Source: Tubiluchus corallicola
Lineage: Eukaryota; Animalia; Priapulida
Length of the DNA: 38,902 nucleotides
Direction: 5' to 3'
NCBI GenBank assembly: GCA_030141605.1
Contig: JAQGDQ010002433.1
Location: forward strand, 1 to 38,902
The notes under the pieces: generated by a model
Databases searched by the model: none
Seen by the model: only the letters and a program-made list of their open reading frames with translations
What the model was told of the DNA's origin: nothing
Shown: positions 12,459 through 38,902 of the stretch, one piece after another
Numbering within the stretch: position 1 is the first letter of the stretch
Layout of the letters: the number at the start of each line of letters is the position of its first letter
Program-made: the position numbers and the translations under genes

Positions 12459-13816
12459 ATGAAAGGAAAAATACTAATAACTCTTTTCTCTTTCATTACT
12501 TGTAAGCTGCCAAGAGCAAGAAAAAGAGCCAACATCGGATAATAACTCTAATACAACATTAGAAAAGCAAGAATTTGTTTTTGATGTAATGCAATCATTT
12601 TACTTGTGGGAAAATAATGTGAGCTTATTGCAAAACTATAAAGATGATGTTGATTTTAGTCTATACAAGAATGAAGAAGACCTATTTGATGACATCATTT
12701 ATGAAGAGAAAGATAGATGGTCGTTTATGATGTCTACCTCTGATGCAGAAGCATATTTTAATCAAGGCATCAACCCTGCAAGTTTTGGAGTTAGATTTGG
12801 GTTAAACTATCAAACGGGAGATGTGTATGTGATTATTATTTATTCTGATTCTCCATTTTATGCTGAGGGAATCAACAATAGGGGCTGGAAAGTAGTATCT
12901 ATTGATGGAGTAAGTGTGCGGGTAACTAATGACACAGAAAAGAACAATTTTCTTACGATGTTAGGAGAAGACAAAGTAGGAGTAACCAAAACATTTGAGT
13001 TAGCTTTTGAAGGTACTACTAAAACTATTACTGTTACCAAGAAAGATATTCATCTTAATTCTGTGTTAATGAAAAAAGTATTTGAAAGAGACAACAAGAA
13101 AATAGGCTACCTATTATATGATGCTTTTTTAAGCACCTCTAACGTTGAGTTAGATGAGGCATCAATATTTTGCAAGTGAAGATATCACAAAACTAATATT
13201 AGATTTACGCTATAATGGAGGAGGAAGCGTTGATATTGCCATTGATTTGTGTGGAAAAATCACAGGAAATACCAAAGTAGGAGAGGTCTTGATTAATTAC
13301 ACTTATAATAAGTATTTAACTGGTGCAGAGGGGTACCCAGAAAATAAGAAACTTTTTTCTGTTAATAATCCAGTGATGGGGATAGATGAGTTAATAGTTA
13401 TTGCAAAATCATCTACTGCTTCTGCTAGCGAACTAGTGATTGATGGTTTGCGGGAAGAATTGTTGTTTCCTGTAAAAGTAGTTGGCAAAAAAACAGAAGG
13501 CAAATATGTAGGGTCTTATTTGTTGCACTCTAAACTTTTTAAGCACTATTATGATTGGGATGATTTGAACATAACCCTATCTCCAATAACGTTTAAGTAT
13601 GGTGATTTTGAGGGTGGAATAGATGAGGATATAACTGTGGAGGATGATTTTTCTGAGCCATTTGGAGAAGCTACAGAAAGCATGTTGGCTGTTGCATTGG
13701 AGTATATAAAGACGGGATCTATACCTGTTGCACGCATGGGAAAAGTCACACAAAAAGAAGCGATATTGCTTAATGATAAAAAAGGATTAAGAGGCGCAAA
13801 CGGTGGTATTTATTAA
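12459..13816 (+). pseudogene. S41 (C-terminal processing) peptidase lipoprotein with PDZ domain, interrupted by two frameshifts
   Basis: ATG 12459 shifts near 12485-12495 into lipobox LLVSC, continuing into ORF 12589. A second shift near 13162 leads to LDLRYNGGG, TASASE and TEGK motifs. Confidence 0.85.
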
Positions 13817-20749: not shown

Positions 20750-22279
20750 TTATTCCCATTCTATGGTGGCAGGAGGTTTTGAACTTATATCATATACCAC
20801 GCGATTAACATGTTCAACGTTATTGATGATTTTGTTAGAAATTTCTGCTAAAAAGTCATAAGGTAAGCGAACCCAGTCCGCTGTCATCCCATCTAGGCTT
20901 TCCACTGCTCGCAAAGCTACAGTATAGTTATATGTTCGATTATCTCCCATAACGCCAACAGTTTTGGAAGATGTAAGTATCGCACCAGCTTGCCATATTT
21001 CTTCGTATAATTGGTGCTGTTTCAATCCAGAGATATAAATTTCATCTACATCTTGTAAAATTTCTACCTTTTCAGGAGTGACTTCACCAATTATTCTTAT
21101 GGCTAACCCGGGTCCAGGAAAAGGGTGTCTTTTAGAGATATTTTCAGGAACCCCAACTACTGTTGCTGTTCTGCGTACCTCGTCTTTGAATAGCATTTTT
21201 AGAGGCTCAACAACTTTTAAACGTACTTTTTCAGGCAACCCCCCCACATTATGATGTGACTTGATGGTTGCCGAAGGACCTCTCACAGATACAGACTCTA
21301 TAATGTCAGGATATATAGTGCCTTGTGCCAGCCATTTAACATCTCCAATTTTGTGGGCTTCTCTATCAAAGACCTCTATGAAAGTCCTTCCTATTGCTTT
21401 GCGTTTCGCCTCTGGATCTTTTATTCCTTTCAAGCTATTATAAAATTCTTGCTTGGCATCTACACCTATCACATTCAACCCCATGTCTTTGTAAGAATTC
21501 AATACCTCTTCAAATTCATTTTTTCTTAACAACCCGTTATCTATAAAAACGCAATATAAGTTTTTTCCAATAGCATTATGAATGAGCATAGCGGCGACAG
21601 AAGAATCTACTCCACCCGAAAGCCCCAAAATAACTTTATCACTGTTAAGTTGCTGTTTGAGTTCTGCTATAGCAGTATTGGCAAAAGAGTCTGGAGTCCA
21701 ATTTGGTTTGCAATTGCAAATATCAATAACAAAATTTTTCAGTATAGTAACTCCTTCTGATGAGTGCGTTACTTCTGGATGAAACTGTATACCATAGACA
21801 TTGGTGTTTTTTTGCTTAAAGGCAGCAATTCTTACTTTATCCGTTTGTGCTATTGCCGAAAAGTCATTGGAAATACTTGTTATGGTGTCTCCATGTGACA
21901 TCCACACTTGTGTGTGTAAGGAAACCGTGTCAAACAGAGTGTCTTTGTCATCAAAAGAGGTTAAGTTCGCTCTTCCGTATTCTCTTGTAGTAGAGCTTTC
22001 TATTTTTCCACTATTTTTCCACGCTATTAGTTGGGCACCGTAACAAATACCTAATATAGGTATTTGCTCACGCCATTGTGAAATGTTTATATTGGGAGCA
22101 TCTTGCTCATACACCGAACAAGGTCCACCAGACAAGATTATGCCTTTTACTCCTTTGGTGTCTTTTGGCAAATGATTAAATGGATGTATTTCACAATAAA
22201 CGTTTAATTCCCTTACCCGTCGACCTATCAGTTGTGTATATTGTGACCCAAAATCTACAATTAGAATTTTTTCTTGCAT
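20750..22279 (-). CDS. guaA: GMP synthase (glutamine-hydrolysing)
   Basis: [27 protein letters not shown] and KPPATIEWE motifs. Confidence 0.98.
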
Positions 22280-26812: not shown

Positions 26813-27015
26813 CGCTTTGCTTTTGTTATTTTTGCTTCAATCCTTATAGTAAGAATATAGCATCTATTGAAATAATTTTTTTGTCTGAATTATGCAGTAT
26901 TCTAACGAAATAGCTCTGAGAATATGATGCTTTATGTTTTAGAGTATAATCGGCAAAACCAAATGAACATTTTTTTGTGAACAAAAATCACAATTTTTTC
27001 ATAAACAAAATTCAC

Positions 27016-27045
27016 AAAAAAGCCCTGCAACTTGCGGGGCTTTTT
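27016..27045. terminator. Bidirectional intrinsic terminator closing the leftward tail operon
   Basis: AAAAAAGCCCTGCAA-C-TTGCGGGGCTTTTT, 8 nt past the stop of ORF 27054. Confidence 0.85.
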
Positions 27046-27053
27046 ATACCATT

Positions 27054-27284
27054 TTATAATGTCGCTATTACAACACCGTTAAGTGCTTTAACCCTTCTTT
27101 TATTAACAAAATCGCTTTCTGTGTTCACGACAACAGAAATGCCTGTTATCTCTTGCTGTGTTACTTCTGTAAGGTTATCATTGGCAAATAATATTTCAGG
27201 CAATGCTGCAATATTGCCATACTCTTGATTCGCAACATCTAATAGGCTTTGCCGTTGTTGGATTATAATTGTTTTATCACTCAT
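27054..27284 (-). CDS. LysM-like baseplate protein (P2 gpX-like)
   Basis: QRQSLLDVANQEYGN.....ILFAN pattern; position after the wedge gene. Confidence 0.7.
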   Translation of the reverse strand: MSDKTIIIQQRQSLLDVANQEYGNIAALPEILFANDNLTEVTQQEITGISVVVNTESDFVNKRRVKALNGVVIATL

Positions 27285-27564
27285 AATATGCCTCTGTTAG
27301 TATCTTACCATCGACTAACTGTACGCTTTGTACCGTCATCCCATCCCTTCTAAATTCGTTTTTGATTGAAGTTATCACACTCCCGGGCTTGTCATCATTT
27401 AGCCAATTAGGCAATCCTACCCCTGCAGTAGGCTCATGTTTAAACGTGCCCTTTTCAGCCAATAGCAATAGCTTTTGATGCTGTTGGGTGCTTTCGCTTT
27501 TTTGAAAATCATTATCTCCAATTTGTAAATCTAAATTGTCATTTAGTAGAATGTCATATCTCAT
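27277..27564 (-). CDS. Baseplate wedge / sheath initiator (gp25/gpW-like)
   Basis: DILL...DL.I..DF..EST.QHQ..LL...KG.FK..PT.GVG; size and gene order. Confidence 0.7.
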   Translation of the reverse strand: MRYDILLNDNLDLQIGDNDFQKSESTQQHQKLLLLAEKGTFKHEPTAGVGLPNWLNDDKPGSVITSIKNEFRRDGMTVQSVQLVDGKILTEAYYE

Positions 27565-27568
27565 GTTG

Positions 27569-28135
27569 TTAGTGCGTTATAGTTGTATCTTCATAATCTG
27601 TTTTGTCAAAAACAGTAGCGTCATTAGCAGGTTGATTAGGTGGACCGGTTTTGGATGTCGGTGTTATATTGTGTTTGTGTGAATTCAATACATCTTTAAT
27701 ATCATTCACCTCACTCACCAACGCATTTAACTTATCCGTTAGCTCATTGATTTTTATTAAGCCGTAATTACCTCCCCCATTAAATACTATCTCTCCATCA
27801 TAGAAAGAGAGTGTAGAAGTTCCTATTTTCAGTTCGACGCTTTTCAGCTCGCTATACTTGACAGCCACATATTGCGAGCTGTCACCGAATGATTTTATTA
27901 GCACGGTACTACCAATTTTTGGAAACAGTATTAAAGCCTCACTAACACGGTCTATATTACTTTTTAAACGGACGTTAAATATCTCATTATCGCTGCTGTC
28001 TATTACATCGCAAGTTTGGTTTATAGTGTCGACCGATTGTACAGTTGCAGGGATTATGCCAATGCCTGCAATGCTTTTTATCATATTCTCGAGTCCGTTT
28101 CTTAATTGCTCTGCTCTATCATTTTGTTTTGCCAT
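27569..28135 (-). CDS. Central spike (P2 gpV / Mu gp45-like)
   Basis: OB-fold-like N-terminus (ATV.SVD...TCDV, P.IGS.V); C-terminal HxH metal-binding tip motif NSHKH. Confidence 0.8.
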   Translation of the reverse strand: MAKQNDRAEQLRNGLENMIKSIAGIGIIPATVQSVDTINQTCDVIDSSDNEIFNVRLKSNIDRVSEALILFPKIGSTVLIKSFGDSSQYVAVKYSELKSVELKIGTSTLSFYDGEIVFNGGGNYGLIKINELTDKLNALVSEVNDIKDVLNSHKHNITPTSKTGPPNQPANDATVFDKTDYEDTTITH

Positions 28136-28136
28136 A

Positions 28137-29123
28137 TCAAGATAATTTAATGCCTAGTTCCACGTTACGCCTTCCACCGTTAAGTCCGTAGGTAGTGGTA
28201 ACCTTATCCACATAATAGGTTCCTTCCCTTTTGGGGTAATTAGTGTCACTTATTTTTGCGGTATTTGTTGGCTGGTTAAAAGGTATTAAAAAGGTTTTCA
28301 AACTCCCTTTATAACCTGTAAATTTGAGTTTTTCAATTTCTCTTTTTGCCCTTTGTTTTATCGTCTCTCTATCCGAAATGTTATAAAAAAACAACGTTCT
28401 TAATTCCCCGTCGCTATCTCCTTCATCCTCCTCTATTTTAGTGTTGTCCTTTTGAATGGCTATTGCCTTCACTTTTATTTTAGTATCATCTTCACGGACA
28501 AACTCAAGGCTATTATCATCAATAGTATTTACCCCCATATTATAAATAACATTACTGCCAACCTGTGCATTTGGCAACCCAATAAAAAGCGTGTTATTGT
28601 CCTTAAAATACATCTGTAATCCATAATCGTTTTTAAGTTTATTAAGTGCAAAAGCAGCGGTTACATCTTGTATATAAAACTCACTAAACTGTATATCTAT
28701 ATCCTCTTCTGTCTCTTTGGCTATCTCTGTGTCTTTTAAAATAAAATCTATTATTGTGTTAAAATTGGTGTTTTTAAAAGCCTTTTTAATATTCTTTTTA
28801 CGTAAAATAAAGGAGGCGTCCTCACATTCAATTTCAAGCGGAGTATTTGGTTTTATTGCAGAAATGTAGCCTTCAAATTCTTTTTTTAGTTCTTCATTAT
28901 ATCCCAATTCTATGATTATTTTGTCTCCCACATTGAACGCCTTGGCGGGTTCTTTTTCTGCTAACAAATCACCTTCTTTTTTCAATCTGGCAGAGGTGGG
29001 CAATAAAATCTTTGCCGTGTCTGTAAGTGCCTTTACGGATTTTTCTATTTTAACTTCGTTGACTCTGGTTAGAGTGTAAGTCTCTTTTCCCGTTATTGTT
29101 ATTTTTGCTCCTAAAACATACAT
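28137..29123 (-). CDS. Baseplate hub (P2 gpD / Mu gp44-like)
   Basis: LTDTA.I.LP, I.LGY....EF.GYI, IECED and G.YYV..V.T.YG..G.R motifs. Confidence 0.8.
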   Translation of the reverse strand: MYVLGAKITITGKETYTLTRVNEVKIEKSVKALTDTAKILLPTSARLKKEGDLLAEKEPAKAFNVGDKIIIELGYNEELKKEFEGYISAIKPNTPLEIECEDASFILRKKNIKKAFKNTNFNTIIDFILKDTEIAKETEEDIDIQFSEFYIQDVTAAFALNKLKNDYGLQMYFKDNNTLFIGLPNAQVGSNVIYNMGVNTIDDNSLEFVREDDTKIKVKAIAIQKDNTKIEEDEGDSDGELRTLFFYNISDRETIKQRAKREIEKLKFTGYKGSLKTFLIPFNQPTNTAKISDTNYPKREGTYYVDKVTTTYGLNGGRRNVELGIKLS

Positions 29124-29124
29124 T

Positions 29125-29751
29125 TTACTCTAATTCTAAAATAAAGTCTTCATCACTTGTGCATAAGAATTCATAAGCTTGTGCATGTTGAATACCTACC
29201 ATTTCTGGTAAACGAAAATCTTTTATCACAAGCCTCTCAACACCCAAGATATTTGTTAGCAATTCGTTATTCACAGGCAAGCTTTCATTTAACAAAAACA
29301 GCTCCTTTAATTGTTCCACTTGTTCGCTAGGATATTTGTACATGTTGTTAAAATCTATTACAATGCCACGTATATTTATATTATAATCAGTCGTGTTTAT
29401 TAGTTCCTTGACGGTTCCTTTTCTACTACTACCTGTCAAGGGTGTTTCTACAATGTTTTTCTTTATGTCAACTTGTAAAATGGGTTCATTGGGCAGTTGA
29501 ATTCCATTAATAGATATTGGCATAAATAACGGTGTGCCAAGAGGAGTTGAACGGTTTAACCCATCAGTAAAAGTGGGTTGTTTTGTGTTTTGTATTTGCT
29601 GGTTAGGGTCAAACCCTTCAGCAGTTGTAACATCTGTTTCAATTGGAGGTTGCAAAAAGGGCAATCCCTTATAACCAAAAGCAAGTTCAAATAGTTGAGG
29701 TAAATTGAACTCTGCCGGTCTTTGTCGTGTTATTATGCCACCTGTTACCAT
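29125..29751 (-). CDS. Tail tube initiator (DUF6046-like, gpU position)
   Basis: KNIVET.L.G..RKGTVKELI...DY.I.IRG; terminal C.SDEDF.LE; immediately after the tape measure gene. Confidence 0.7.
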   Translation of the reverse strand: MVTGGIITRQRPAEFNLPQLFELAFGYKGLPFLQPPIETDVTTAEGFDPNQQIQNTKQPTFTDGLNRSTPLGTPLFMPISINGIQLPNEPILQVDIKKNIVETPLTGSSRKGTVKELINTTDYNINIRGIVIDFNNMYKYPSEQVEQLKELFLLNESLPVNNELLTNILGVERLVIKDFRLPEMVGIQHAQAYEFLCTSDEDFILELE

Positions 29752-29753
29752 TG

Positions 29754-31391
29754 TTATTGTGTTTGTATTTGGTTAAATCCATTGACGGCATTTATAACAG
29801 ATTCCAGTATTCTTTCGCCAGCTGCTTCGGCACCATCTGCTATTTCTTTTGTGTTTATGTTTATGCCATCCATAAATTTACCTATGGTTATATTAATGTT
29901 TTTCACCTGCTTTCCTCCTGTGGTTATTGCAGTTGTGCCTTGTGTCACATCTGTGGGAGGAGCGGTTGTTTCTTTTGGAGAAATGGCTCCCTGCATTGCT
30001 TGTGTCATATCTGTGGGAGGAGCGGTTGTTTCTTTTGGAGAAATGGCTCCCTGCATTGCTTGTGTTACATCTGTGGGGGGTGTTATTCCTGCCGCCGCCA
30101 CTGATGGAGCTGTTCCTCCTGCCCCTGCAGCAGAAGGGGTTAAATCGCCTGCTTTGCTTAATTGTTTCTTGCTTTCGCCAATGTAATTGGACGCAAAATT
30201 CTGTCCAAAGGTTTTTCCTGCTTGAGCTCCTGCCTTACCGATAGCTACGATTGGCGTAGTGTCAAGTATCCCTTTACCCAAACTGCTAAATCCCTCCTTT
30301 GCCGCTTCAGCAGCCTCTTTAAATTCACCCTCGAACAATTTGCTAATTGCTGTGCCTAATAACCCAAGCCCTTTTAAAACGTTTTTTATCCCCTCCAGAA
30401 AAGTACCAAACAAAGTAGATGTAAATGTTTTCAATGCTTCCCAAGTGGTAATTATTACAGCCCTAAATCTCGCAAATTTCTGCCATGCAAAAACAACTGC
30501 AGAAGTTAATGCCACTATTGCCGTAATTATCAAACCCCATCCACTGGCCTTCATGGCAACATTTAATAGCCATTGTGCCGCCGTCCAAAGTTTTGTTGCT
30601 ATAGATACGGTATTCGTTGCCACATTTAACAGCCATTGTGCCGCCGTCCAAAATTTTGTTTGTTGGATAATGAACAGCAATGAGTCTCCAGTATCAGATA
30701 ATTCAGTTTGTAGTCCGCTAGTGGCTGATTTTAGCAGAGTCATGCCTGCTGCTAAACTGCCCAGTTGTTTTGCTGCTACATTTTTGGCTGTACTACCGAC
30801 ACTGCCAAATTCTTGAATTAATTCTCTTATGCTATCAGTTCCGCCTTGTACTAAGCCAGTCAGCTTACTCCCTGCAATTTGTCCAAAAATGTCTAACACA
30901 CTTGCCCCAGTATTCCCTGCTTCATTTAAGTCATTAATTGTACCAATAAGTGAATGAATCGTCCCATTGCTTTCTAAATGATTTAATGCGTTTTGTGCGT
31001 CTATAGTTGGTTTTTGTAATTTCGCAAAAGAGGAAGCGAGGGCGGTACCTGCCAAGCTTCCTTGCATCCCAATGTTACCAAATTTCTCTATAAGTGTCAG
31101 CGTATCAGAAATGCTTTGATTTGCTGCTGTAGCGGCTGGTGCTGTTAGATTTAATGACTTGCCTAGCTGCTCTAAATTAACGCTAGCGCTTGTGGTTGTT
31201 AGTGCCAGTTTGTCGTTAAGTTCGGCTGTTTTGTTTGTTTCTAATCTAAAAGCAGCGAGGGTGTTGCTGGTGGCTTTTTGTTGCTTGTCAAATTTAGCAA
31301 CAGAAGTACTTAGTTTATTTATAGAATTTATTAATTTGTCTACACTACTACTTTTACCTTGTACTTCTATGGGTATTTGATACGTTGCCAC
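29754..31391 (-). CDS. Tail tape measure protein (short, 545 aa)
   Basis: GTG start; Ala/Gly-rich helical sequence; G..GS.AGTAL TP901-like segment; TAAQWLLNVA repeats; C-terminal GGKQVKNINITI. Confidence 0.9.
   Translation of the reverse strand: MATYQIPIEVQGKSSSVDKLINSINKLSTSVAKFDKQQKATSNTLAAFRLETNKTAELNDKLALTTTSASVNLEQLGKSLNLTAPAATAANQSISDTLTLIEKFGNIGMQGSLAGTALASSFAKLQKPTIDAQNALNHLESNGTIHSLIGTINDLNEAGNTGASVLDIFGQIAGSKLTGLVQGGTDSIRELIQEFGSVGSTAKNVAAKQLGSLAAGMTLLKSATSGLQTELSDTGDSLLFIIQQTKFWTAAQWLLNVATNTVSIATKLWTAAQWLLNVAMKASGWGLIITAIVALTSAVVFAWQKFARFRAVIITTWEALKTFTSTLFGTFLEGIKNVLKGLGLLGTAISKLFEGEFKEAAEAAKEGFSSLGKGILDTTPIVAIGKAGAQAGKTFGQNFASNYIGESKKQLSKAGDLTPSAAGAGGTAPSVAAAGITPPTDVTQAMQGAISPKETTAPPTDMTQAMQGAISPKETTAPPTDVTQGTTAITTGGKQVKNINITIGKFMDGININTKEIADGAEAAGERILESVINAVNGFNQIQTQ
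29939..30080 (-). repeat. About 2.3 copies of a 60-bp in-frame repeat (PPTD[VM]TQAMQGAISPKETTA) in the tape measure gene
   Basis: 29941-30000 and 30001-30060 differ at one base; partial third copy. Confidence 0.92.
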
Positions 31392-31566
31392 CGCCTGCTT
31401 CTTTTTTTCTTATGTCAATTAAATTTTTAAAATTCATTACCCACTCTTCGTTGCTCATTTCCCTTAATTCGTTACGAGAAATGCCTAAATAGTACATTAA
31501 CATTGTGTTAATGTATCCGATATAATTGCTATTAACTCCTCCATTGCAGGAGTTTATAACTTTTTT
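31354..31566 (-). CDS. -1 frameshift extension of the tail assembly chaperone (gpGT-like)
   Basis: Slippery A AAA AAG at 31566-31560. The -1 frame stays open: VINSCNGGVNSNYIGYINTMLMYYLGISRNELREMSNEEWVMNFKNLIDIRKKEAGGGNVSNTHRSTR*. Confidence 0.75.
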   Translation of the reverse strand, partial: KKVINSCNGGVNSNYIGYINTMLMYYLGISRNELREMSNEEWVMNFKNLIDIRKKEAGGGNVSNTHRSTR

Positions 31567-31853
31567 ATCTCTGCATTTCCTATTTTGAGGATTTTATCCA
31601 ATGTTGCAATAGTGCTTATTTGCATCTCCCATTTTGTTTTGAATTGCTCATCGCCCGCCACAAAGCAATTGTTTATAATAGTTGATGCGTAGTCAAGGGT
31701 TTTATTTTGTGACATATACATGAGTGCCATGTTTACAGTCTCTCTATCTGGTGCTTTCAGATAACATTTCTTTTGTTCACCTTCAAACGTTATTGTTATT
31801 TCGTAAACGTCTTTGTATTTTTTTTTTAGCTCTTCAATATTGGCTTTGCTCAT
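31554..31853 (-). CDS. Tail assembly chaperone (gpG-like)
   Basis: I.ELKKKY, CYLK.PDR and NCFV.GDE motifs; ends EIKKL; precedes the tape measure gene. Confidence 0.8.
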   Translation of the reverse strand: MSKANIEELKKKYKDVYEITITFEGEQKKCYLKAPDRETVNMALMYMSQNKTLDYASTIINNCFVAGDEQFKTKWEMQISTIATLDKILKIGNAEIKKL

Positions 31854-31890
31854 TTTATTAGTTTTTAATTATATGTTTTATAATAAAATA

Positions 31891-32079
31891 TTAATTCTGA
31901 TCTTTGATATCTTGTTTATTATTGAACTCTCCTTTGTTATTTTTGCCTTTTATTTTTTGCTTTTTCACTTCTTGAACAAAAGTGGGCTTGTCTAAAAATT
32001 TAGCATAAAACCATGTCCCACTACCAAATCCAATGACAAACCCTAAAAGGATATGGATAATATATTTTTTGATTCCCAT
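31891..32079 (-). CDS. Small N-terminally anchored Lys-rich protein (possible i-spanin or lysis accessory)
   Basis: Start re-called at ATG 32079 (MGIKKY); one hydrophobic helix then a charged tail; last gene of the lysis cassette. Confidence 0.5.
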   Translation of the reverse strand: MGIKKYIIHILLGFVIGFGSGTWFYAKFLDKPTFVQEVKKQKIKGKNNKGEFNNKQDIKDQN

Positions 32080-32081
32080 AG

Positions 32082-32300
32082 CTATGAGTTTTTTCTTTCT
32101 ACTCTTTTTTCTTGCACAGCAACTCCCCACAACATGACTGCCAATCCTTGTAATATTGAAAGAAAAGCTATGTCATTGGTTTGTAATCCATCTCCAATAA
32201 ACATTCGCACCAGACCTACTAACAAAACTATATATGTGATGATATTGGCTGCTAACAGCTTTCCATTATATCGTCCGTTATTTTTTATCATATCTTTCAT
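32082..32300 (-). CDS. Putative holin (two transmembrane helices)
   Basis: 72 aa; two hydrophobic segments; charged C-terminus; start overlaps the amidase stop. Confidence 0.6.
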   Translation of the reverse strand: MKDMIKNNGRYNGKLLAANIITYIVLLVGLVRMFIGDGLQTNDIAFLSILQGLAVMLWGVAVQEKRVERKNS

Positions 32301-32683
32301 AATGCTTCTTTTACATTAAAACAAGGGCATTTTTTATTTGCAAACTCACAATGTCCATGTGTTGTTGCACGAGGGTATTTATACTGTAGCTCGCCTACTA
32401 AGTCTTTCAATGCCACTTTCTGCTCTGGTGTTCGGTTGTCCTCTCCGTCTTTTCCTCCTACCCAGCAGACACCTATACTCCCTTTATTTTTGCCCATGCA
32501 GTGGGCTCCAACCTCTTTATCCTCCCGTCCTTTTTCTATTTCTCCATTGCGTTTTATTACATAGTGATAACCTATTTTTTCCCACCCCTTTTGTTTATGC
32601 CAGCTATCTATTTCTTTTGCTCCAATATCCATACCCGTAGGTGTGTCAGAACAGTGAATTATTAGTTTAGTTATCTTTCTCAT
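32297..32683 (-). CDS. Endolysin, N-acetylmuramoyl-L-alanine amidase (T7 lysozyme-like)
   Basis: IIHCS, GW..IGYH, GAH, SIGVC.VGG, GH and K.CP motifs; start re-called at ATG 32683. Confidence 0.92.
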   Translation of the reverse strand: MRKITKLIIHCSDTPTGMDIGAKEIDSWHKQKGWEKIGYHYVIKRNGEIEKGREDKEVGAHCMGKNKGSIGVCWVGGKDGEDNRTPEQKVALKDLVGELQYKYPRATTHGHCEFANKKCPCFNVKEAL

Positions 32684-32688
32684 TTTCT

Positions 32689-32943
32689 TTATAACGCTCG
32701 CACAAAAAAGTATACGATCATTGCGGAAACAACACTGCATATTATTGCCGTAACTCCACCCCATATCATGGCTTGATTTTTCATTTTTGTCTCTAATATC
32801 GCCACCTTGACTTTTTGTTCTTCATGCTCTTTCAAAAGCGTTTCTACTTTTGCTTGAATGTCTTTAAAGGAGTAGAAAAGTTTTAGTAATAATTCTTTTT
32901 GAGTTAATTTATCCGGTTGGATATATTGCTCCTTATTGCTCAT
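32689..32943 (-). CDS. Coiled-coil protein with a C-terminal transmembrane helix (holin/XhlA-like)
   Basis: Heptad-rich region then hydrophobic MIWGGVTAIICSVVSAMIVYFFV; directly upstream of the endolysin. Confidence 0.55.
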   Translation of the reverse strand: MSNKEQYIQPDKLTQKELLLKLFYSFKDIQAKVETLLKEHEEQKVKVAILETKMKNQAMIWGGVTAIICSVVSAMIVYFFVRAL

Positions 32944-32948
32944 TCTCT

Positions 32949-33374
32949 CTATACATTATACTTTATGTTCAATGCCACAAATGGCAATTCTATTTGCGAA
33001 TTCAAATCACCTTGAGACATTGCAGTGTCAAATTCAGTTACTTGTACGTTTTCAATGTTATCTCTGGTTATTTTGGGGTTCGTCACATCTCCACTATATG
33101 ACACTGAAATGTTAAATGTTATCTCTGTCAGGTCTTTTGCCCCTACCTCTCTTGCGGCTTTATTAAGAGCTATCACTTCACTTTGTAGCAATGTAATAGA
33201 CCCTTCGTAAGCTTTATTGCCATTTTGAATCGCCAACGGAGCGCTACCTCTGCCATAGAGGGGTTCGTGTACTCGGGAGGTTCTGTAACTTATTCCTATA
33301 AACCCGACTAATGGACGTCCCAAAATACTAATTTCTATGTTTTCCCAAGCATATTGCTTTGCGTTTACTGCCAT
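32949..33374 (-). CDS. Contractile tail tube protein
   Basis: N.KQYAW, YGRG..P..IQ.GN..YEGSITLLQSE and QGD...IELPF motifs; follows the sheath gene. Confidence 0.85.
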   Translation of the reverse strand: MAVNAKQYAWENIEISILGRPLVGFIGISYRTSRVHEPLYGRGSAPLAIQNGNKAYEGSITLLQSEVIALNKAAREVGAKDLTEITFNISVSYSGDVTNPKITRDNIENVQVTEFDTAMSQGDLNSQIELPFVALNIKYNV

Positions 33375-33379
33375 GTTAA

Positions 33380-34573
33380 CTAATTTAATGCAGGGTTCAC
33401 AAACCCTATTTCTACAATTATTTTTTTTGCATAACCTACAGGTGTAATCTCTAATATTATCTTTATTTCACCTGTAGATAAAATGTTTTGTTCAGGGTCT
33501 ATAAATGCACTTACACTGCTTATTTCCCCCCCGCTTGTCATTTGCTGGTCTATTACTGTTTCAATATTTGTCTGTAAGTTGCCAGCAATTGAAGGTAATA
33601 TGTTGCCATTTTCTGTTACACCTATTTCATCCAATAACTCATTTACATAAGTAATGTACGTAAGTAAATATGCCTTATCTATTACCCTACCATTCGCCAA
33701 AGTTTTGTAATCGTCAGTATCAGCAGTTGCCATTGGGTCGTCAGAAAGGAAGTATCCTGCGCGTCCTTGATAGAAACGCAATAACATATATCCTTTGTCA
33801 TGAACAGCATCCAGTTGCAATTCTTGGCCTTCTACTGTCACGCCGTTAGATAAATAAGCGTCTGTTATTGGAAGAGACCCGTCTTTTACCCTTCCTACAT
33901 TTCTTTGCACTGGAATATTTGATATTTTGCCTAATAATAGGCCAACGGAAGAGCTGCCGTCCGTTAATGTACTACCTATAAATATTGCACTTCGGTTTTT
34001 ATCATCGGTTTTTAGGTCTGTTAAGTCGCCAGGTGTTCCTGTATAACTTCTACCCTCTAAAATTATTCTAAATGGCTTATACCTATCATTATATGTTTCG
34101 GCTAATATCTGCCCTGTAATTAAGGCGTCAAAAGCCTCCTGGTCAATTCCATTCGTTACATCTGGAGTATAACCTACATCTGGAGAGCGTGTAACTCCTA
34201 ACACTTTGACTCTACCATTAGCGGCGTCTAATAGATTTACAGCATAATTTCCCTCGTTAATATCAACGAGACTATCCATTGCAATGGTTTGGGATGTTAC
34301 TAATATCCACAATTCTGCTCCTGTTCCTGCAGCATCATAAAACTCTTTCAAATGCCTGTATACGTTTACAGAGTTGGCTATATCGTAATTCTCGTCTATT
34401 TTCAATTCATCAACAGCTTGTTTTAAGGAAAATATTTGGTACGGTGTGTTCAACTCCACGCCACTAGCAACTGCCACACCTTGGAGTATCAAACCCATTA
34501 TTCCATCATCCACCGAAGGCGTACTACCGAGGCCTCCCTGTTGTAATTGTATGTCTATTTTTGGTAATGGCAT
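33380..34573 (-). CDS. Contractile tail sheath protein (DUF2586-like)
   Basis: EFY..AG.G.ELW, PVQRNVGRVKDG, LHDKGY-like, RVIDKA and P.GYA..I.V.IGF motifs; 397 aa. Confidence 0.88.
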   Translation of the reverse strand: MPLPKIDIQLQQGGLGSTPSVDDGIMGLILQGVAVASGVELNTPYQIFSLKQAVDELKIDENYDIANSVNVYRHLKEFYDAAGTGAELWILVTSQTIAMDSLVDINEGNYAVNLLDAANGRVKVLGVTRSPDVGYTPDVTNGIDQEAFDALITGQILAETYNDRYKPFRIILEGRSYTGTPGDLTDLKTDDKNRSAIFIGSTLTDGSSSVGLLLGKISNIPVQRNVGRVKDGSLPITDAYLSNGVTVEGQELQLDAVHDKGYMLLRFYQGRAGYFLSDDPMATADTDDYKTLANGRVIDKAYLLTYITYVNELLDEIGVTENGNILPSIAGNLQTNIETVIDQQMTSGGEISSVSAFIDPEQNILSTGEIKIILEITPVGYAKKIIVEIGFVNPALN

Positions 34574-34576
34574 AGT

Positions 34577-34957
34577 TTATCTTTTTTTGTTTTTTTGTGA
34601 AATTTTTCGATTATCTGCCGAAGGTTCTTTTCCCTCTGTGGTGTCGTTGTCTTTCTGTTCTTGTCCTTTTTTTGTCACAGCCTGTGCTTCTACTACTTCT
34701 TTTGTTTTTGCCTCTGCTTTTTTCTTTTCCTTTTCTCTTTTCTCTTTTTCTCTTTTTTGCTGTTCCTTGTGTGCCAGTTTTTCTGCTTCTGTTTTGGTTA
34801 TTATTTGCACCTTACCTTTCCCATCTGGTTTTGCTTTTCTATTTAGCGAAACTTGATGCTCATTTGCCAACAACTCCTTTCCAAAAGGAGTCCCATCAGT
34901 TGTAATGTATATCTCCTTGAAATTTGGATTCGCTTTAAATATTTTGTTGTAATTCAT
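34577..34957 (-). CDS. Small phage structural-region protein with a Lys/Glu-rich tail
   Basis: IF..NP...EIY.T.DG.PF...A..H domain; first intact gene of the leftward operon, between the capsid scrap and the sheath. Confidence 0.6.
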   Translation of the reverse strand: MNYNKIFKANPNFKEIYITTDGTPFGKELLANEHQVSLNRKAKPDGKGKVQIITKTEAEKLAHKEQQKREKEKREKEKKKAEAKTKEVVEAQAVTKKGQEQKDNDTTEGKEPSADNRKISQKNKKR

Positions 34958-34975
34958 TTCTTATTTTGTTTGTTT

Positions 34976-35059
34976 TTATATATCGCTTACAATTGATCCT
35001 ATATACTTATTCCTTTTTGGTAAAGCTATAAAACGGTGTTGAAGTCCTATTGTATCCTT
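34976..35059 (-). pseudogene. Probable C-terminal remnant of a major capsid protein
   Basis: Start-less frame KDTIGLQHRFIALPKRNKYIGSIVSDI*, resembling from recall the G.RH.FIALP....IGAI.S ends of Bacteroidota prophage capsids; expected position. Confidence 0.55.
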
Positions 35060-35124
35060 ATTAGAAATGTTTGTTTCACGCCTCCAAAAGTTTTAAAACA
35101 AAGGAATGAAAGCTAAAAGACAAC

Positions 35125-35161
35125 TGCAAAAAGAGTTGCAATCCTTGCAACTCTTTTTGCA
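35125..35161. promoter_or_regulatory. Perfect 17-bp inverted repeat in the divergent control region
   Basis: TGCAAAAAGAGTTGCAA-TCC-TTGCAACTCTTTTTGCA; near-consensus -7 boxes on each side (AACTTTTG on - at 35085-35092, TTCATTTG on + at 35180-35187). Confidence 0.7.
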
Positions 35162-35191
35162 AAAAAGTTAGTAGACACGTTCATTTGTAGC

Positions 35192-35290
35192 ATGAAAAGA
35201 GAAGATAAAAAGGGGCTTGGCAAAGCGCTCTTTTTACAAACGAATTACAGCCGAAAAAAATATCAGGACGATTAGGTGTGCCTCTTGAGA
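35192..35290 (+). pseudogene. Probable N-terminal remnant of a small terminase / HTH protein
   Basis: MKREDKKGLGKALFLQTNYSRK, then across an A7 run ISGRLGV: an HTH start that breaks off. Confidence 0.55.
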
Positions 35291-35334
35291 GCGGTTATGC
35301 ACTTGAAAAGTACAACCGCTCTAAGCCGACAAGT

Positions 35335-35497
35335 AAAGATAAAACAGTTGAAATCTATTGAGCCTAGTTTGCCGACACACAATGAGGATCCTGATGCAAT
35401 AGAGGGTACTGTTTGGGTGATAAACAGTAAATTGCACCAATACAACAAAAACCAACTTACGACTGGAAGAATGAAAGGCCATACAAAGCGGTTTTAA
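35335..35497 (+). pseudogene. Probable C-terminal remnant of the large terminase
   Basis: QLKSIEPSLPTHNEDPDAIEGTVWVIN resembles a degenerate HDD.PDA.EG nuclease motif; no upstream ATPase domain. Confidence 0.6.
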
Positions 35498-35626
35498 GGA
35501 ATGAAAAAACAAAAGTAGCAATAGAGTGCATGAAAAACAAAATAGGCAAAATTAAACAGCTTTAAACAGGTTTTAAACAGCGTGTTGAGTGCCTTGTATG
35601 GTAAGCAAAACTAAAACAGTAAAAAT

Positions 35627-35740
35627 ATGAAATTAAAAGCAATTAATGACGTGGTTTCTTCTTCTGTAAGCGGTGGCGACGCAACAGCAGCAAATCAAAC
35701 CACGCAAATTAATATGACTTTTGAAATACAATACTTATAA
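35627..35740 (+). CDS. 37-aa ORF, probably a deletion chimera of phage genes
   Basis: MKLKAINDVVSSSVSGGDATAANQTTQINMTFEIQYL*; stop lies 2 nt before baseplate J. Confidence 0.4.
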   Translation: MKLKAINDVVSSSVSGGDATAANQTTQINMTFEIQYL

Positions 35741-35742
35741 TT

Positions 35743-36558
35743 ATGAGAACCTTTGAAGAAATTAGAGATGAAATATTAGATAATGTGGAAACAAACTTTC
35801 CATCGTTTGATAGAAATACCGCAAGCAAAACCGCTATCTGGCTACTTTGGGTAAATATAACCGCAATGGCAATATATGTTTTTGAGCAGATTTTTTATAA
35901 GGAGAGAGAGGGTTTGTTGTCGGTATTTGAAGAGAATAAATATGGTACGTTGACATGGTACAGGCAAATTGTTCTCGCGTTTCAGTTTGGCTACGAATTG
36001 GAAGAACAAGAGGATCGAACATTTCAATATCCAACAATTGACGAGGAGGCAAAAATTATCGCACAAGCAGCAATAGTGGAAAATACAGTAACAAGCCTAC
36101 TTACTATAAAAGTGGCAAAAGAGAGCGGAGGAACATTAGCACCACTTGAAAATGAAGAACTTGAAGCTTTCACACAATATATACAATTGGTAAAAGTTGC
36201 TGGTACGTTGTTAAACATTATCAGCTTTCCGCCAGATGTGTTTAATGTAGTTGCAGAGGTGGATTATGACCCACAAGTAACGGAGGAGGTAACAATAGAG
36301 AATATTAAGGCTTCATTGGAGAGTTATCAATTTAATTTCACATTCAACGGTGTCATTAATCGTAACGACGTAATAGATGTATTGCAAGCAACGACAGGCG
36401 TCAAGGATGTGAAAATAACTACATTGGATGTAACGCCTGATGGAGGTGGCACTTTGGCAATAGACAAGGAGGAACTAACGGAGGCGGGCTATTTTGTCTA
36501 CGATGGAGGAGTGCAGGCGATAGTCGATGCATTTACTTATATTCCTAAAACGACATAA
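35743..36558 (+). CDS. Baseplate wedge protein (gpJ-like)
   Basis: MRT.EEI, SKTAIW.LW, GTL.WY....LAFQ.G, IKVAK and VKVAGT...IIS..PD motifs. Confidence 0.8.
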   Translation: MRTFEEIRDEILDNVETNFPSFDRNTASKTAIWLLWVNITAMAIYVFEQIFYKEREGLLSVFEENKYGTLTWYRQIVLAFQFGYELEEQEDRTFQYPTIDEEAKIIAQAAIVENTVTSLLTIKVAKESGGTLAPLENEELEAFTQYIQLVKVAGTLLNIISFPPDVFNVVAEVDYDPQVTEEVTIENIKASLESYQFNFTFNGVINRNDVIDVLQATTGVKDVKITTLDVTPDGGGTLAIDKEELTEAGYFVYDGGVQAIVDAFTYIPKTT

Positions 36559-36561
36559 AAG

Positions 36562-37083
36562 ATGAATTTTTTAGGGTTTGACATAAACAAATTTATAGCG
36601 CAATATTTGGGAGCGTTATTTAACAAAGACAAACAAAGAGGTTGGATAGAGTCCCTTTTGTCGCCATTGGTAACCTTGTGGGGGGAGTATGTCGTTGATA
36701 GGCAGAACATATTAGAGATTGCCAATATAAAGCCTTCTAAAATAAGTCTTGAAAGGCATTTGAACAAATTATATGATGCAACATTAGAGAGGATATTTCT
36801 TACAGAGAAAAAGGATTTGATATTTTTTGTTTTTACAGAGGGAGAGGCTCAACCTGCGATTTATATATATTTTGAGGTGGAGGCAATGACTCCGTTTTAC
36901 TCGTTTTTGGAAGGAGAAAATACGGTGGTATCGATAAACTTTTTTATAGTAGTGATACCCGATGACTTGGCAGTTGCCACGCCAGAGATAAAAGAGACAG
37001 TAAGGGCGGAGGTGCAAAAATATAAATCAGGAGGATTCTTCTTTGAAATTTTGTTTGATAGTGAATTTGCAACAATAACATAA
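36562..37083 (+). CDS. Baseplate wedge protein (gpI-like)
   Basis: W..SLL.P, SLE..LN..YD....RI, F.VVIP and V.KYK..G..F.I motifs; follows the J-like gene. Confidence 0.7.
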   Translation: MNFLGFDINKFIAQYLGALFNKDKQRGWIESLLSPLVTLWGEYVVDRQNILEIANIKPSKISLERHLNKLYDATLERIFLTEKKDLIFFVFTEGEAQPAIYIYFEVEAMTPFYSFLEGENTVVSINFFIVVIPDDLAVATPEIKETVRAEVQKYKSGGFFFEILFDSEFATIT

Positions 37084-37087
37084 AACC

Positions 37088-37258
37088 ATGAATATAAACC
37101 AACAGTGCCCTAATTGTAGAGAAACAGATATAAAAATAACCACGCTTGCAGAGCAAGAGTATTATGGGTGTAGAGCGTGTGGCATGGCTTACAAGTTAAT
37201 TATGGGCTTGCCTTATACAAAGAGAAAAAATAGAAAGAGAGCTTTATATAACGATTAA
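37088..37258 (+). CDS. Unannotated 56-aa zinc-ribbon protein
   Basis: Hand-translated MNINQQCPNCRETDIKITTLAEQEYYGCRACGMAYKLIMGLPYTKRKNRKRALYND*; CxxC-x17-CxxC plus a basic tail; fills the gap with 4-nt and 11-nt spacings. Confidence 0.7.
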   Translation: MNINQQCPNCRETDIKITTLAEQEYYGCRACGMAYKLIMGLPYTKRKNRKRALYND

Positions 37259-37269
37259 AAAATAATATT

Positions 37270-38532
37270 ATGAGTATAACAATAGAACAGAGAAAGAGAG
37301 TGGTAAATGAAACTGGTGGTCGTCCGTTTTTTGCAGCAGACCAACAGCGTATTAACGCAATATATGATGTGTTGGATAGATTTTTAAAAAGTGCCAACAC
37401 CAAGCCTGACGGCGATTTGGAGGGGTTTATATTAGATGGATTTGATTTTGCAGATTTAGGAGGAGACCTATACGATATTAGCAATGGGTATGCTGTGATA
37501 GATGGCGAGCTGGTATTTTTTCAGGGGGACAACAATGTAGACCTATCCACTCCGAAGTATTTAATCAAGCAAAAAACATTTACACAAAAGCCGTATCAAA
37601 CGGGAGGTAACAAAAACTTTTCTGAGCTCTACGAAGGTGTGATAAGTGCAACAGACCCCGCGCCAGCCGATAGGGTGATAATAACTGCTCCAAGCGGTGG
37701 AGAAAGCACTTTAAGAACATGGGAGCTGGCATTGCAGCAGCGAATTGTAGCCAATGGCGTAACGGACAAAAAAATACCTATATGGAGTGAAACAAAAAAC
37801 GCGTTTAAAGATAGCAACATAATCCAAGAAGACAATGGCGATGTGAGAATAGATGGGGATAATTTTAGATACGGAGACAAAAAAAAATATACGGGTGCTT
37901 TTTTTAGCTCCACTGAGTTTATGGTGGCGGCAAGAGTTACTATTAATAAGGGGAATGATGGAAGTTTTAAGGCTAAAATATATAACAACAACACCATTTT
38001 TGGAAATAGTCGGAATTTGTGGGGAGAAGCAGTGGTACTGTGTCCAAGTAATAGAGATCAGGGCAAGGGACCTAGATGGCAGGCAGAGTGGTACGCAACC
38101 AATAGTACCGCGAAAATACAAGTAGTGGAAATTGCAACAAACATATATGAGGTGCAGGTTAAGACGTATGAACATAGTGGAAGTTGGCACTTTATAGAAT
38201 TGGAATTTTTTAGAGGGCGTTTTCCATCGAGTGTTGAATTTAACCAAGGAGCAGCAACCAATACCACTCCTATTGCAAGCCAATATCACAAATATTATAA
38301 CGGAAGAGTTATCAGCAACAAAGTAGTACAAGGGACTTCTGGAGGATCTCCCAACACTCATAAAACAATAAATCATGGACTAAATAGCACCAACGTGCTG
38401 GTTCTATGTAGTTCTCAGAGAACTGCTTCAGGGTACACAACAACCATTAATTATAAGATTGTAGATGCCAACAATATCCAATTTAAATTAGGCGGAGGTG
38501 GCAACTATACTAGAAACTTTTCGTATAGATAG
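37270..38532 (+). CDS. Tail fibre / receptor-binding protein
   Basis: N-terminal attachment-like region (GG.PF, IS.GY.VIDGELV.F.G); beta-rich C-terminal part with a TI.HGL motif; last gene of the rightward operon. Confidence 0.7.
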   Translation: MSITIEQRKRVVNETGGRPFFAADQQRINAIYDVLDRFLKSANTKPDGDLEGFILDGFDFADLGGDLYDISNGYAVIDGELVFFQGDNNVDLSTPKYLIKQKTFTQKPYQTGGNKNFSELYEGVISATDPAPADRVIITAPSGGESTLRTWELALQQRIVANGVTDKKIPIWSETKNAFKDSNIIQEDNGDVRIDGDNFRYGDKKKYTGAFFSSTEFMVAARVTINKGNDGSFKAKIYNNNTIFGNSRNLWGEAVVLCPSNRDQGKGPRWQAEWYATNSTAKIQVVEIATNIYEVQVKTYEHSGSWHFIELEFFRGRFPSSVEFNQGAATNTTPIASQYHKYYNGRVISNKVVQGTSGGSPNTHKTINHGLNSTNVLVLCSSQRTASGYTTTINYKIVDANNIQFKLGGGGNYTRNFSYR

Positions 38533-38548
38533 AACGTCTGAATGAAGT

Positions 38549-38574
38549 AAAAGGGAGCTCTTAAGCTCCTTTTT
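38549..38574. terminator. Bidirectional intrinsic terminator closing the rightward tail operon
   Basis: AAAAGGGAGCT-CTTA-AGCTCCTTTTT. Confidence 0.8.
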
Positions 38575-38598
38575 GTGGTTATGTTATTCTTGGCAGCT

Positions 38599-38902
38599 TT
38601 AGCTGCTCCAAAATAGCATCTCTTTTTTCTTCTGGAGACGTGTTAGCATAAAAATCAGCAAATGTTCCGTTGATTCAGCATTCATCTGTAATAGGAAAAT
38701 TTCGTCTAAGAGCTCCTCTGGCGTATAATATTTGTTTATAAGCTCTGTAGCTTTACATTCCCACCCCGCTAACTCAACTCCCCTACGAATCCATAAAAAA
38801 TAAATATCTGTAAACTCTAAGCTTTTTATGAAGTTGAGTTTTTCCTGCGTATCAACTTCACACTCACCCTCCAGCGTTCCTACGTTGATAGTCACTTCAA
38901 AA
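38599..38902 (-). CDS. Hypothetical protein, probably truncated by the window edge
   Basis: Frame open to the window end; converges on the terminator; no recognised motif. Confidence 0.45.
   Translation of the reverse strand, partial: FEVTINVGTLEGECEVDTQEKLNFIKSLEFTDIYFLWIRRGVELAGWECKATELINKYYTPEELLDEIFLLQMNAESTEHLLIFMLTRLQKKKEMLFWSS

Follow-up and report, generated by a model that had tools for sequence, protein, structure and literature searches.

Repeated independent origins of tailocins are established, according to the accessible text of PMC12090994. The R-type syringacin of Pseudomonas syringae is a Mu-derived tailocin in which, as far as the available portion of PMC4542187 describes it, only tail and regulatory genes have been kept. 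The element presented here resembles syringacin as portrayed there in retaining a Mu-type contractile tail and lysis genes, in having lost head, packaging and replication functions, and in carrying a variable receptor-binding fibre. It differs from that portrayal in belonging to another phylum, in its DUF2586 sheath, head-gene scraps and inverted J-wedge-fibre block, in having no terminator or regulator within the window (the whole 38,902-nt stretch of DNA analysed), and in being known from its genes alone. With R-type pyocin and diffocin it shares the architecture of a headless contractile tail with a lysis cassette, but both of those systems have a collar and a collar-fold gene is missing here. 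Because the collar is absent within the window and the element is documented solely as genes, we do not file it as an R-type tailocin.

Other relatives are closer in sequence family. Intact DUF2586 Mu-like prophages (L006, L017, L024) contain the same gene families, and their layout of divergent terminase and protease-capsid-tail operons can still be read in the scraps; in contrast, the present element has ~91% less head block, no early genes in the window, a flipped baseplate-fibre unit and a zinc-ribbon insertion. The Flavobacterium phages lotta8 and pippi8 are distant relatives. Two clades of headless clusters, one of them Chitinophaga-associated, share the tail family, the loss of the head and an intact tail operon with our element, but they are of separate origin, free of scraps, and have a retained terminator and the standard gene order. 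Cryptic or defective prophages, which Bobay et al. in 2014 reportedly found to be under deletion bias, likewise combine large deletions with surviving gene blocks. The hallmarks of eCIS (Afp/PVC-like) are an AAA ATPase, a duplicated sheath or tube, and effector cargo, none of which was found in the element. A gene transfer agent was rejected, as capsid, portal and terminase are not retained. Our searches found no paper that names DUF2586, and no Mu-derived tailocin from Bacteroidota or Chitinophaga was found in the openly accessible literature covered; the cleaner Chitinophaga clusters described below may therefore be the more tractable discovery.

The element lies at the end of the window, in a Bacteroidota-type host stretch with a SusC/SusD pair, GuaA and GreA. 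It is a phage-tail cluster of 11.6 kb (~27.0-38.6 kb), with 370 bp remaining beyond the fibre gene, and consists of two operons, one on the minus strand from 34957 down to 27054 and the other on the plus strand from 35743, separated by a 0.77-kb scar (Table 1). A DUF2586 sheath, a DUF6046 protein and divergent terminase and capsid operons mark its Mu-like DUF2586 ancestry, and the element is a headless, rearranged Mu-like prophage of Bacteroidota. It displays head-gene scraps, missing blocks, open tail frames and a strand switch of J, wedge and fibre, and no terminator, tail-completion or early genes are present in the window. We put the probability at about 0.5 that the element is maintained as a young cassette of the R-type-tailocin kind, its tail cap being supplied from elsewhere in the genome. 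Headless clades within its own family provide precedents, as do Mu-derived tailocins with like gene loss, to the extent that these are covered in the available portion of PMC4542187.

Table 1. Features of the DUF2586 element and its scar (positions in the window)
Feature	Position	Strand	Remarks
Terminator-like hairpin	27016..27047		Left element end; z -2.8
LysM-like (tail X-like) baseplate protein	27054..27284	-	76 aa, short end of family; E 1.4e-11
gp25-like baseplate wedge	27277..27564	-	
Spike / gpV-like	27569..28135	-	
Baseplate hub	28137..29123	-	phrog_4930 E 5e-77
DUF6046 hub / tube-initiator protein	29125..29751	-	PF19512
Tape measure	29754..31391	-	545 aa (551-686 in relatives)
Tail assembly chaperone pair	31357..31853	-	E 2e-13
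Lysis block	31891..32943	-	Two small membrane ORFs, amidase and holin-like ORF; phrog_822
Amidase	32297-32680	-	PF01510
Holin-like ORF	32689-32943	-	Weak match; putative holin
Tail tube	32949..33374	-	phrog_4579
Tail sheath DUF2586	33380..34573	-	PF10758 E 2e-52, phrog_907
Lys/Glu-rich protein	34577..34957	-	126 aa; E 1e-16; comes after the capsid gene in intact relatives
Capsid C-terminal scrap	34976..35077	-	No start codon
Perfect 17-bp inverted repeat	35125..35161		Two back-to-back TCTTTTTGCA boxes; also terminator-shaped
Small-terminase (HTH) N-terminal scrap	35192..35280	+	Frameshift at A run
Possible portal C-terminal scrap	35269..35352	+	Out of ancestral order
Large-terminase C-terminal scrap	35330..35497	+	Nuclease motif altered, native stop
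37-aa ORF	35627..35740	+	No family; at rearrangement junction
Baseplate J	35743..36558	+	
Baseplate wedge	36562..37083	+	
Zinc-ribbon ORF (CxxC/CxxC)	37088..37258	+	56 aa
Tail fibre	37270..38532	+	420 aa; E 1e-13; distal part varies among strains
Bidirectional terminator-like hairpin	38547..38576		Right element end

The head scraps are not recognized by Pfam, PHROGs or NCBIfam, and family profiles built from related loci were therefore needed. Sheath searches fetched 165 loci, of which two (L004, L005) were unrelated and were dropped; a single-sheath scan of the genome collection yielded 3 loci, one a true relative. The 3,878 ORFs from the fetched loci, those of the window's element included, were clustered, and cluster representatives were named with PHROGs and Pfam. 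In the usual intact order, terminator, tail completion, MuF, portal, adaptor, and large and small terminase are arranged in one direction, and protease, capsid, sheath, tube through LysM, J, wedge and fibre in the other. One clade of intact phages places the terminator and gp25 otherwise, with gp25 in the packaging operon. No ortholog of the element was found, nor were close host relatives, and since the nearest sheath is only 53% identical, breakpoints cannot be mapped to the base.

Three of the fragments that the initial annotation had reported between the operons were recovered with these profiles. The capsid-like C-terminus on the minus strand, which has no start codon and ends in a stop at 34976-78, matches one of three capsid subfamilies, obtained by clustering with the query left out, at columns 306-338 of 340 (E 1.2e-5), the top score among 1,795 window segments. 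Against the remaining two subfamilies there was no match, and a pooled capsid profile is weak on this segment (E 0.14, with 11 of 200 shuffles equally good). By blastp against the 3,878 proteins, the top 12 matches are 11 capsids and one unclustered capsid-end fragment, all aligned at the extreme C-terminus (best E 1.4e-4). The HTH start opens with an ATG at 35192, and small-terminase N-termini make up 11 of its 12 top matches; its PSSM score of 28.2 bits was reached by none of 200 shuffles and none of 34 host tiles, and the match resumes in another frame at 35254-35280, past a run of 7 A residues. The degenerate terminase motif HNEDPDAIEG falls inside a large-terminase match to columns 450-499 of 502 (E 2e-8), and an Asp that is invariant in 42 of 42 relatives has become Glu. 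The portal-like stretch beats 200 of 200 shuffles, but its HMM E values are 0.2-1.2 and portal was one of 14 families tested; judged by these scores it is a possible portal scrap, which would lie out of ancestral order. No protease, adaptor, MuF, tail-completion or terminator scraps were found in the scar.

The 37-aa ORF is present as proposed, and its supposed chimerism was borne out in part, through a patch shared with the tape-measure gene at 21 of 23 nt (none of 100 shuffles reached 20); this patch is its one non-random link, and no family match was found. The two copies form an inverted repeat pair (31112-31134 in the tape measure, 35680-35702 in the ORF) that is in frame in both genes and could, by its arrangement, enable a 4.5-kb flip, although no joint from such a flip was seen. 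Comparison of the ORF with 12 tail families gave no significant match. Its identification as a LysM tail was rejected, as 37 of 1,337 segments score equally, and a terminator end is unsupported, the best window ranking 5 of 1,038 with six other windows weak.

In 45 of 47 relatives, 7.8-8.9 kb separate the distal end of the packaging operon from the capsid stop, as opposed to 0.77 kb here, and ~91% of a head block that measures ~8.5 kb in relatives is gone. At least three separate deletions had been suggested. Three missing blocks do lie between the kept scraps (protease and most of capsid; most of both terminases; adaptor, portal, MuF, tail completion and terminator), but the third junction includes a change of strand and is not a plain deletion. 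Two internal deletions, of ~2 kb and ~1.7 kb, would have trimmed the head block back to the divergent promoter island; the trimming ends at functional edges, namely this island and the region where the first gene of the tail operon starts. Profile searches of the window found scraps only and no functional head, packaging or replication genes. The set typical of an intact prophage (whole capsid, protease, terminases, Mu portal, adaptor) is absent from the window, as is the early half of the phage.

The scar is genuine. A collapsed assembly is refuted by one public 7,810-nt contig of run X1, which spans 30036-37845 without a joint, and among the listed differences between the window and X1 none falls within 34760-37058. 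Runs X1-X3 are one sample, possibly the window's own source sample, and for that reason the bridging does not count as independent support.

That the one-sided loss is hard to explain by random decay proved to be overstated. The probability that three or four lesions would all fall in the head block is 0.09 or 0.04 by length alone. Loss of conserved sites in the scraps relative to the tail genes (2/6 vs 19/159; 5/13 vs 82/391) is not significant (p 0.16-0.17), and the statistics do not demonstrate selection on the tail. The same one-sided bias would arise if costly head and replication genes were selected against. These figures lend weight to a reading that we find doubtful but take seriously, namely that the element is a dead-end cryptic prophage: deletions took costly replication and packaging genes together with the terminator, the particle cannot work, and the remaining tail genes are intact through too little time or through silence. 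Against this, ~91% of the head block has been lost, yet the tail and lysis genes are free of lesions. All 17 tail and lysis ORFs tested (3,414 codons) have open frames and are closely spaced, with lengths in or near the family range, and a neutral divergence of 0.02 would yield ~10 stops over that number of codons. Sheath, tube, tape measure, hub, spike, wedge and fibre genes are intact, a lysis cassette is present (amidase PF01510, with holin-like ORFs that are weak matches), and hairpins close both ends of the element. Within the tape-measure gene there are near-perfect 60-nt tandem repeats and a 63-nt-spaced repeat (29939-30080 and 30550-30660), a pattern that suggests a recent change in length.

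The central control region had been described as spared, and was instead found to be rebuilt. The divergent gap is ~100 bp, compared with 65-284 bp, mostly 130-200 bp, in 43 relatives. Several relatives have TAnnTTTG boxes 19-39 nt before each start, and a relaxed box occurs in both directions in 16 of the 43 (shuffled mean 2.9). TAnnTTTG is the consensus of the Bacteroidota -7 element, which the TCTTTTTGCA boxes resemble. No strict TAnnTTTG box was found in the central region, a point on the side of a dead end. What occupies the gap is the 17-bp inverted repeat, the maximum among shuffles being 12 and arms of this length occurring in 2 of 70 relatives. It places TCTTTTTGCA on both strands, with the plus-strand copy 32 nt before the small-terminase ATG. 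By its symmetry the palindrome fits a mirror-built, two-way promoter or operator, and by its shape it also fits a bidirectional terminator. Under a tailocin-like reading it would be a compact late promoter or operator acting in both directions. The minus strand has three strict TAnnTTTG boxes at 35517-35613, but these were not significant, with 65 of 1,000 shuffles doing as well.

J, wedge and fibre are on the strand opposite to the sheath, whereas J is on the sheath strand in 98 of 98 relatives (the fetched sheath loci that include J) and in six further loci. A rearrangement therefore accompanied the deletions. We infer that one inversion of a segment comprising packaging and tail genes, broken between LysM and J, would yield the present layout. 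Together with loss of the adaptor-to-terminator and early regions, it would have brought J, wedge and fibre under the old small-terminase promoter. LysM and J were both left open by the rearrangement, which speaks against a dead end. Alternatively, the order could be ancestral, with J-wedge-fibre ending the packaging operon and deletions the only change, or it could be partly an assembly product with the host flank mis-joined. The move of gp25 into the packaging operon in one intact clade lends some colour to the first version, and the left host-to-element join, which is not bridged among the X1 contigs listed, to the second. We nevertheless consider this pair of explanations highly improbable, given the uniform orientation of J in relatives and the single X1 contig that bridges the scar-to-J join. 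On the plus strand, the zinc-ribbon ORF fills a wedge-fibre gap of 186 bp, and none of 81 measured relatives has a gap there of >58 bp; it is a possible regulator.

The initial annotation also held that the downstream tail genes were all spared. This does not hold for the terminator/collar and tail-completion genes, which were not found in the window; in profile searches a tail terminator was not detectable there, with a best E of 2.6. The terminator family is recognized in relatives at the end of the packaging operon, and its predicted fold (pLDDT 88) matches the T5 terminator, R2 pyocin collar, Mu terminator, diffocin collar and lambda gpU. It is kept in 17 of 18 other headless clusters of the DUF2586 family, the 18th having a weak candidate; these 18 are the clusters with readable upstream DNA, and some of the loci are near-duplicates. 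A small gene adjoining the terminator, without family or structure match, is kept in 13 of 14 scanned headless loci and absent from the window. This small gene may be an activator in the headless clusters. Neither a repressor nor this conserved partner gene was found in the window. In Mu and SPO1, terminator mutants have longer tails, and tubes protrude from the head end on contraction, as reported in the accessible part of PMC11784142. A working particle from the present locus therefore needs a gene from elsewhere, and the absence of terminator, tail-completion and partner genes from the window is among the points that favour a dead end.

The missing functions could also be provided by a second related prophage in the same cell, which the cassette would serve as a helper or satellite tail set. 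That prophage would supply the terminator, a regulator and possibly heads, and the cassette would act as a spare module for tail or fibre and not as a weapon in its own right. X1 depth roughly doubles over 26945-27975, and 15 of 32 X1 records are 90-99% alike, with loose ends at 26907, 31310, 33358, 33550 and 35106; the raised depth and loose ends, in X1 and X2, and the imperfectly alike records point to a second related, interrupted element or strain. An X1 host contig stops fitting at 26944, and at 26907 the left flank of another contig is different. We regard a helper role as unlikely: contig depth is no copy number, and the X1 pieces have an interrupted appearance and could come from a different strain or species. 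In this sample, related pieces break off at the start of the tube and the end of the sheath (33358 and 33550), which is in keeping with a dead end.

Variation within the element is concentrated in the fibre, which runs counter to a dead end. The window and X1 show 66 differences; 29 of the 40 listed fall in fibre codons 168-413, with 8 just downstream of these codons and 3 in the preceding 7.7 kb. X2 has a third fibre pattern, and the distal half of the fibre and the right flank (37773-38842) differ among the window, X1 and X2, which makes three or more fibre patterns in an otherwise nearly identical cluster. Among 25 changed fibre codons, read by eye, 19 alter the residue, 6 are silent and none is a stop, a ratio that is also expected under relaxed constraint. 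The pattern of a diversity-generating retroelement was dropped as an explanation, since A is the starting base in 13 of 29 changes, close to its share of the base composition. For Pectobacterium tailocins, fibre recombination is reported in the available text of PMC13195805.

If the cassette is indeed maintained as a tailocin-like weapon, induction would lead the cell to build headless contractile tails, lysis would proceed via the amidase and holin-like genes, and the released tails would kill related bacteria recognized by the variable fibre. The phage-to-tailocin domestication that had been envisaged is, on this evidence, a plausible reading.

To place the element in its family, a sheath tree was built by a quick method from 78 rows after 80% redundancy filtering. 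The window falls among intact phages, apart from two headless clades, one of 10 rows (support 100, Chitinophaga-associated) and one of 3 rows (support 99). Members of the 10-row clade have sheaths 89% and 95% identical to those of C. tropicalis and C. varians, respectively. Twelve loci (L019, L026, L036, L047, L071, L074, L081, L086-L088, L095, L096) are Chitinophaga-associated headless clusters with sheaths 64-100% alike. In the sheath and ~2 kb upstream, these clusters keep the terminator and the small partner gene, and they are candidates for an undescribed Bacteroidota tailocin. In the second clade (L067, L079, L135), the DNA upstream of the sheath retains genes for a repressor-like protein, the terminator, gp25 and an amidase. 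Neither set of clusters contains head scraps at E<0.05.

DUF2586 is carried by 5 of 61 genomes in the family of the nearest sampled genome. In genome G285, the terminator adjoins the sheath in a headless cluster. Genome G266 has headless clusters with two tandem sheaths (L181:1161-7468, L182:5746-16304, L183:1279-6988). Besides a terminator-like gene in divergent orientation, these carry AAA ATPases, an LRR protein and a 1,443-aa protein with a nuclease domain, a gene content that makes them look injector-like and probably derived from a Mu-type tail. With the two headless clades, the G266 and G285 clusters indicate that head loss is recurrent in the DUF2586 family, and the other DUF2586 lineages lost their heads independently. 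A further five loci (L113, L114, L120, L132, L150) keep protease and capsid with the tail and have no terminase or portal in the upstream DNA examined; their packaging genes may have been lost or moved.

A broader and more tentative proposal, for which we would claim less than even odds as a whole, is that DUF2586 Mu-like tails have been repeatedly domesticated in Bacteroidota, the present locus being the youngest case and a working tailocin with its collar in trans. The conserved tail-only clusters of Chitinophaga and the second clade would be part of the same process, as would the injector-like G266 clusters with their double sheath, AAA ATPase and nuclease; at the present locus it would comprise the inversion onto the terminase promoter and the rebuilding of the two-way promoter as a mirror repeat. 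If true, this would add an undescribed Bacteroidota tailocin family and capture the stages by which a phage becomes a weapon. Known tailocins are usually without head-gene traces, and the order of domestication events has therefore been deduced rather than seen. Here scraps, inversion and rebuilt promoter can still be read, and they can be compared with finished headless clusters from the same family of phages. Those finished clusters keep the terminator, and so the present locus either obtains its collar from elsewhere and has a tail that works, or is a failed attempt.

Some features lie outside the element proper. An open-ended 100-aa frame without family on the minus strand (38599-38901) shows indels and substitutions in X1 and may be decayed or variable. 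In the host portion, a chitobiase/hexosaminidase (9048-11703) and an S41 peptidase (12589-13816) are each apparently split over two ORFs, which reflects either true breaks or sequence errors. GuaA (20750-22279) gave no close host relative at E 1e-250 among 8,000 scored proteins. Its best identity is 67% among 251 sampled Bacteroidota genomes, and the host looks like a poorly sampled lineage.
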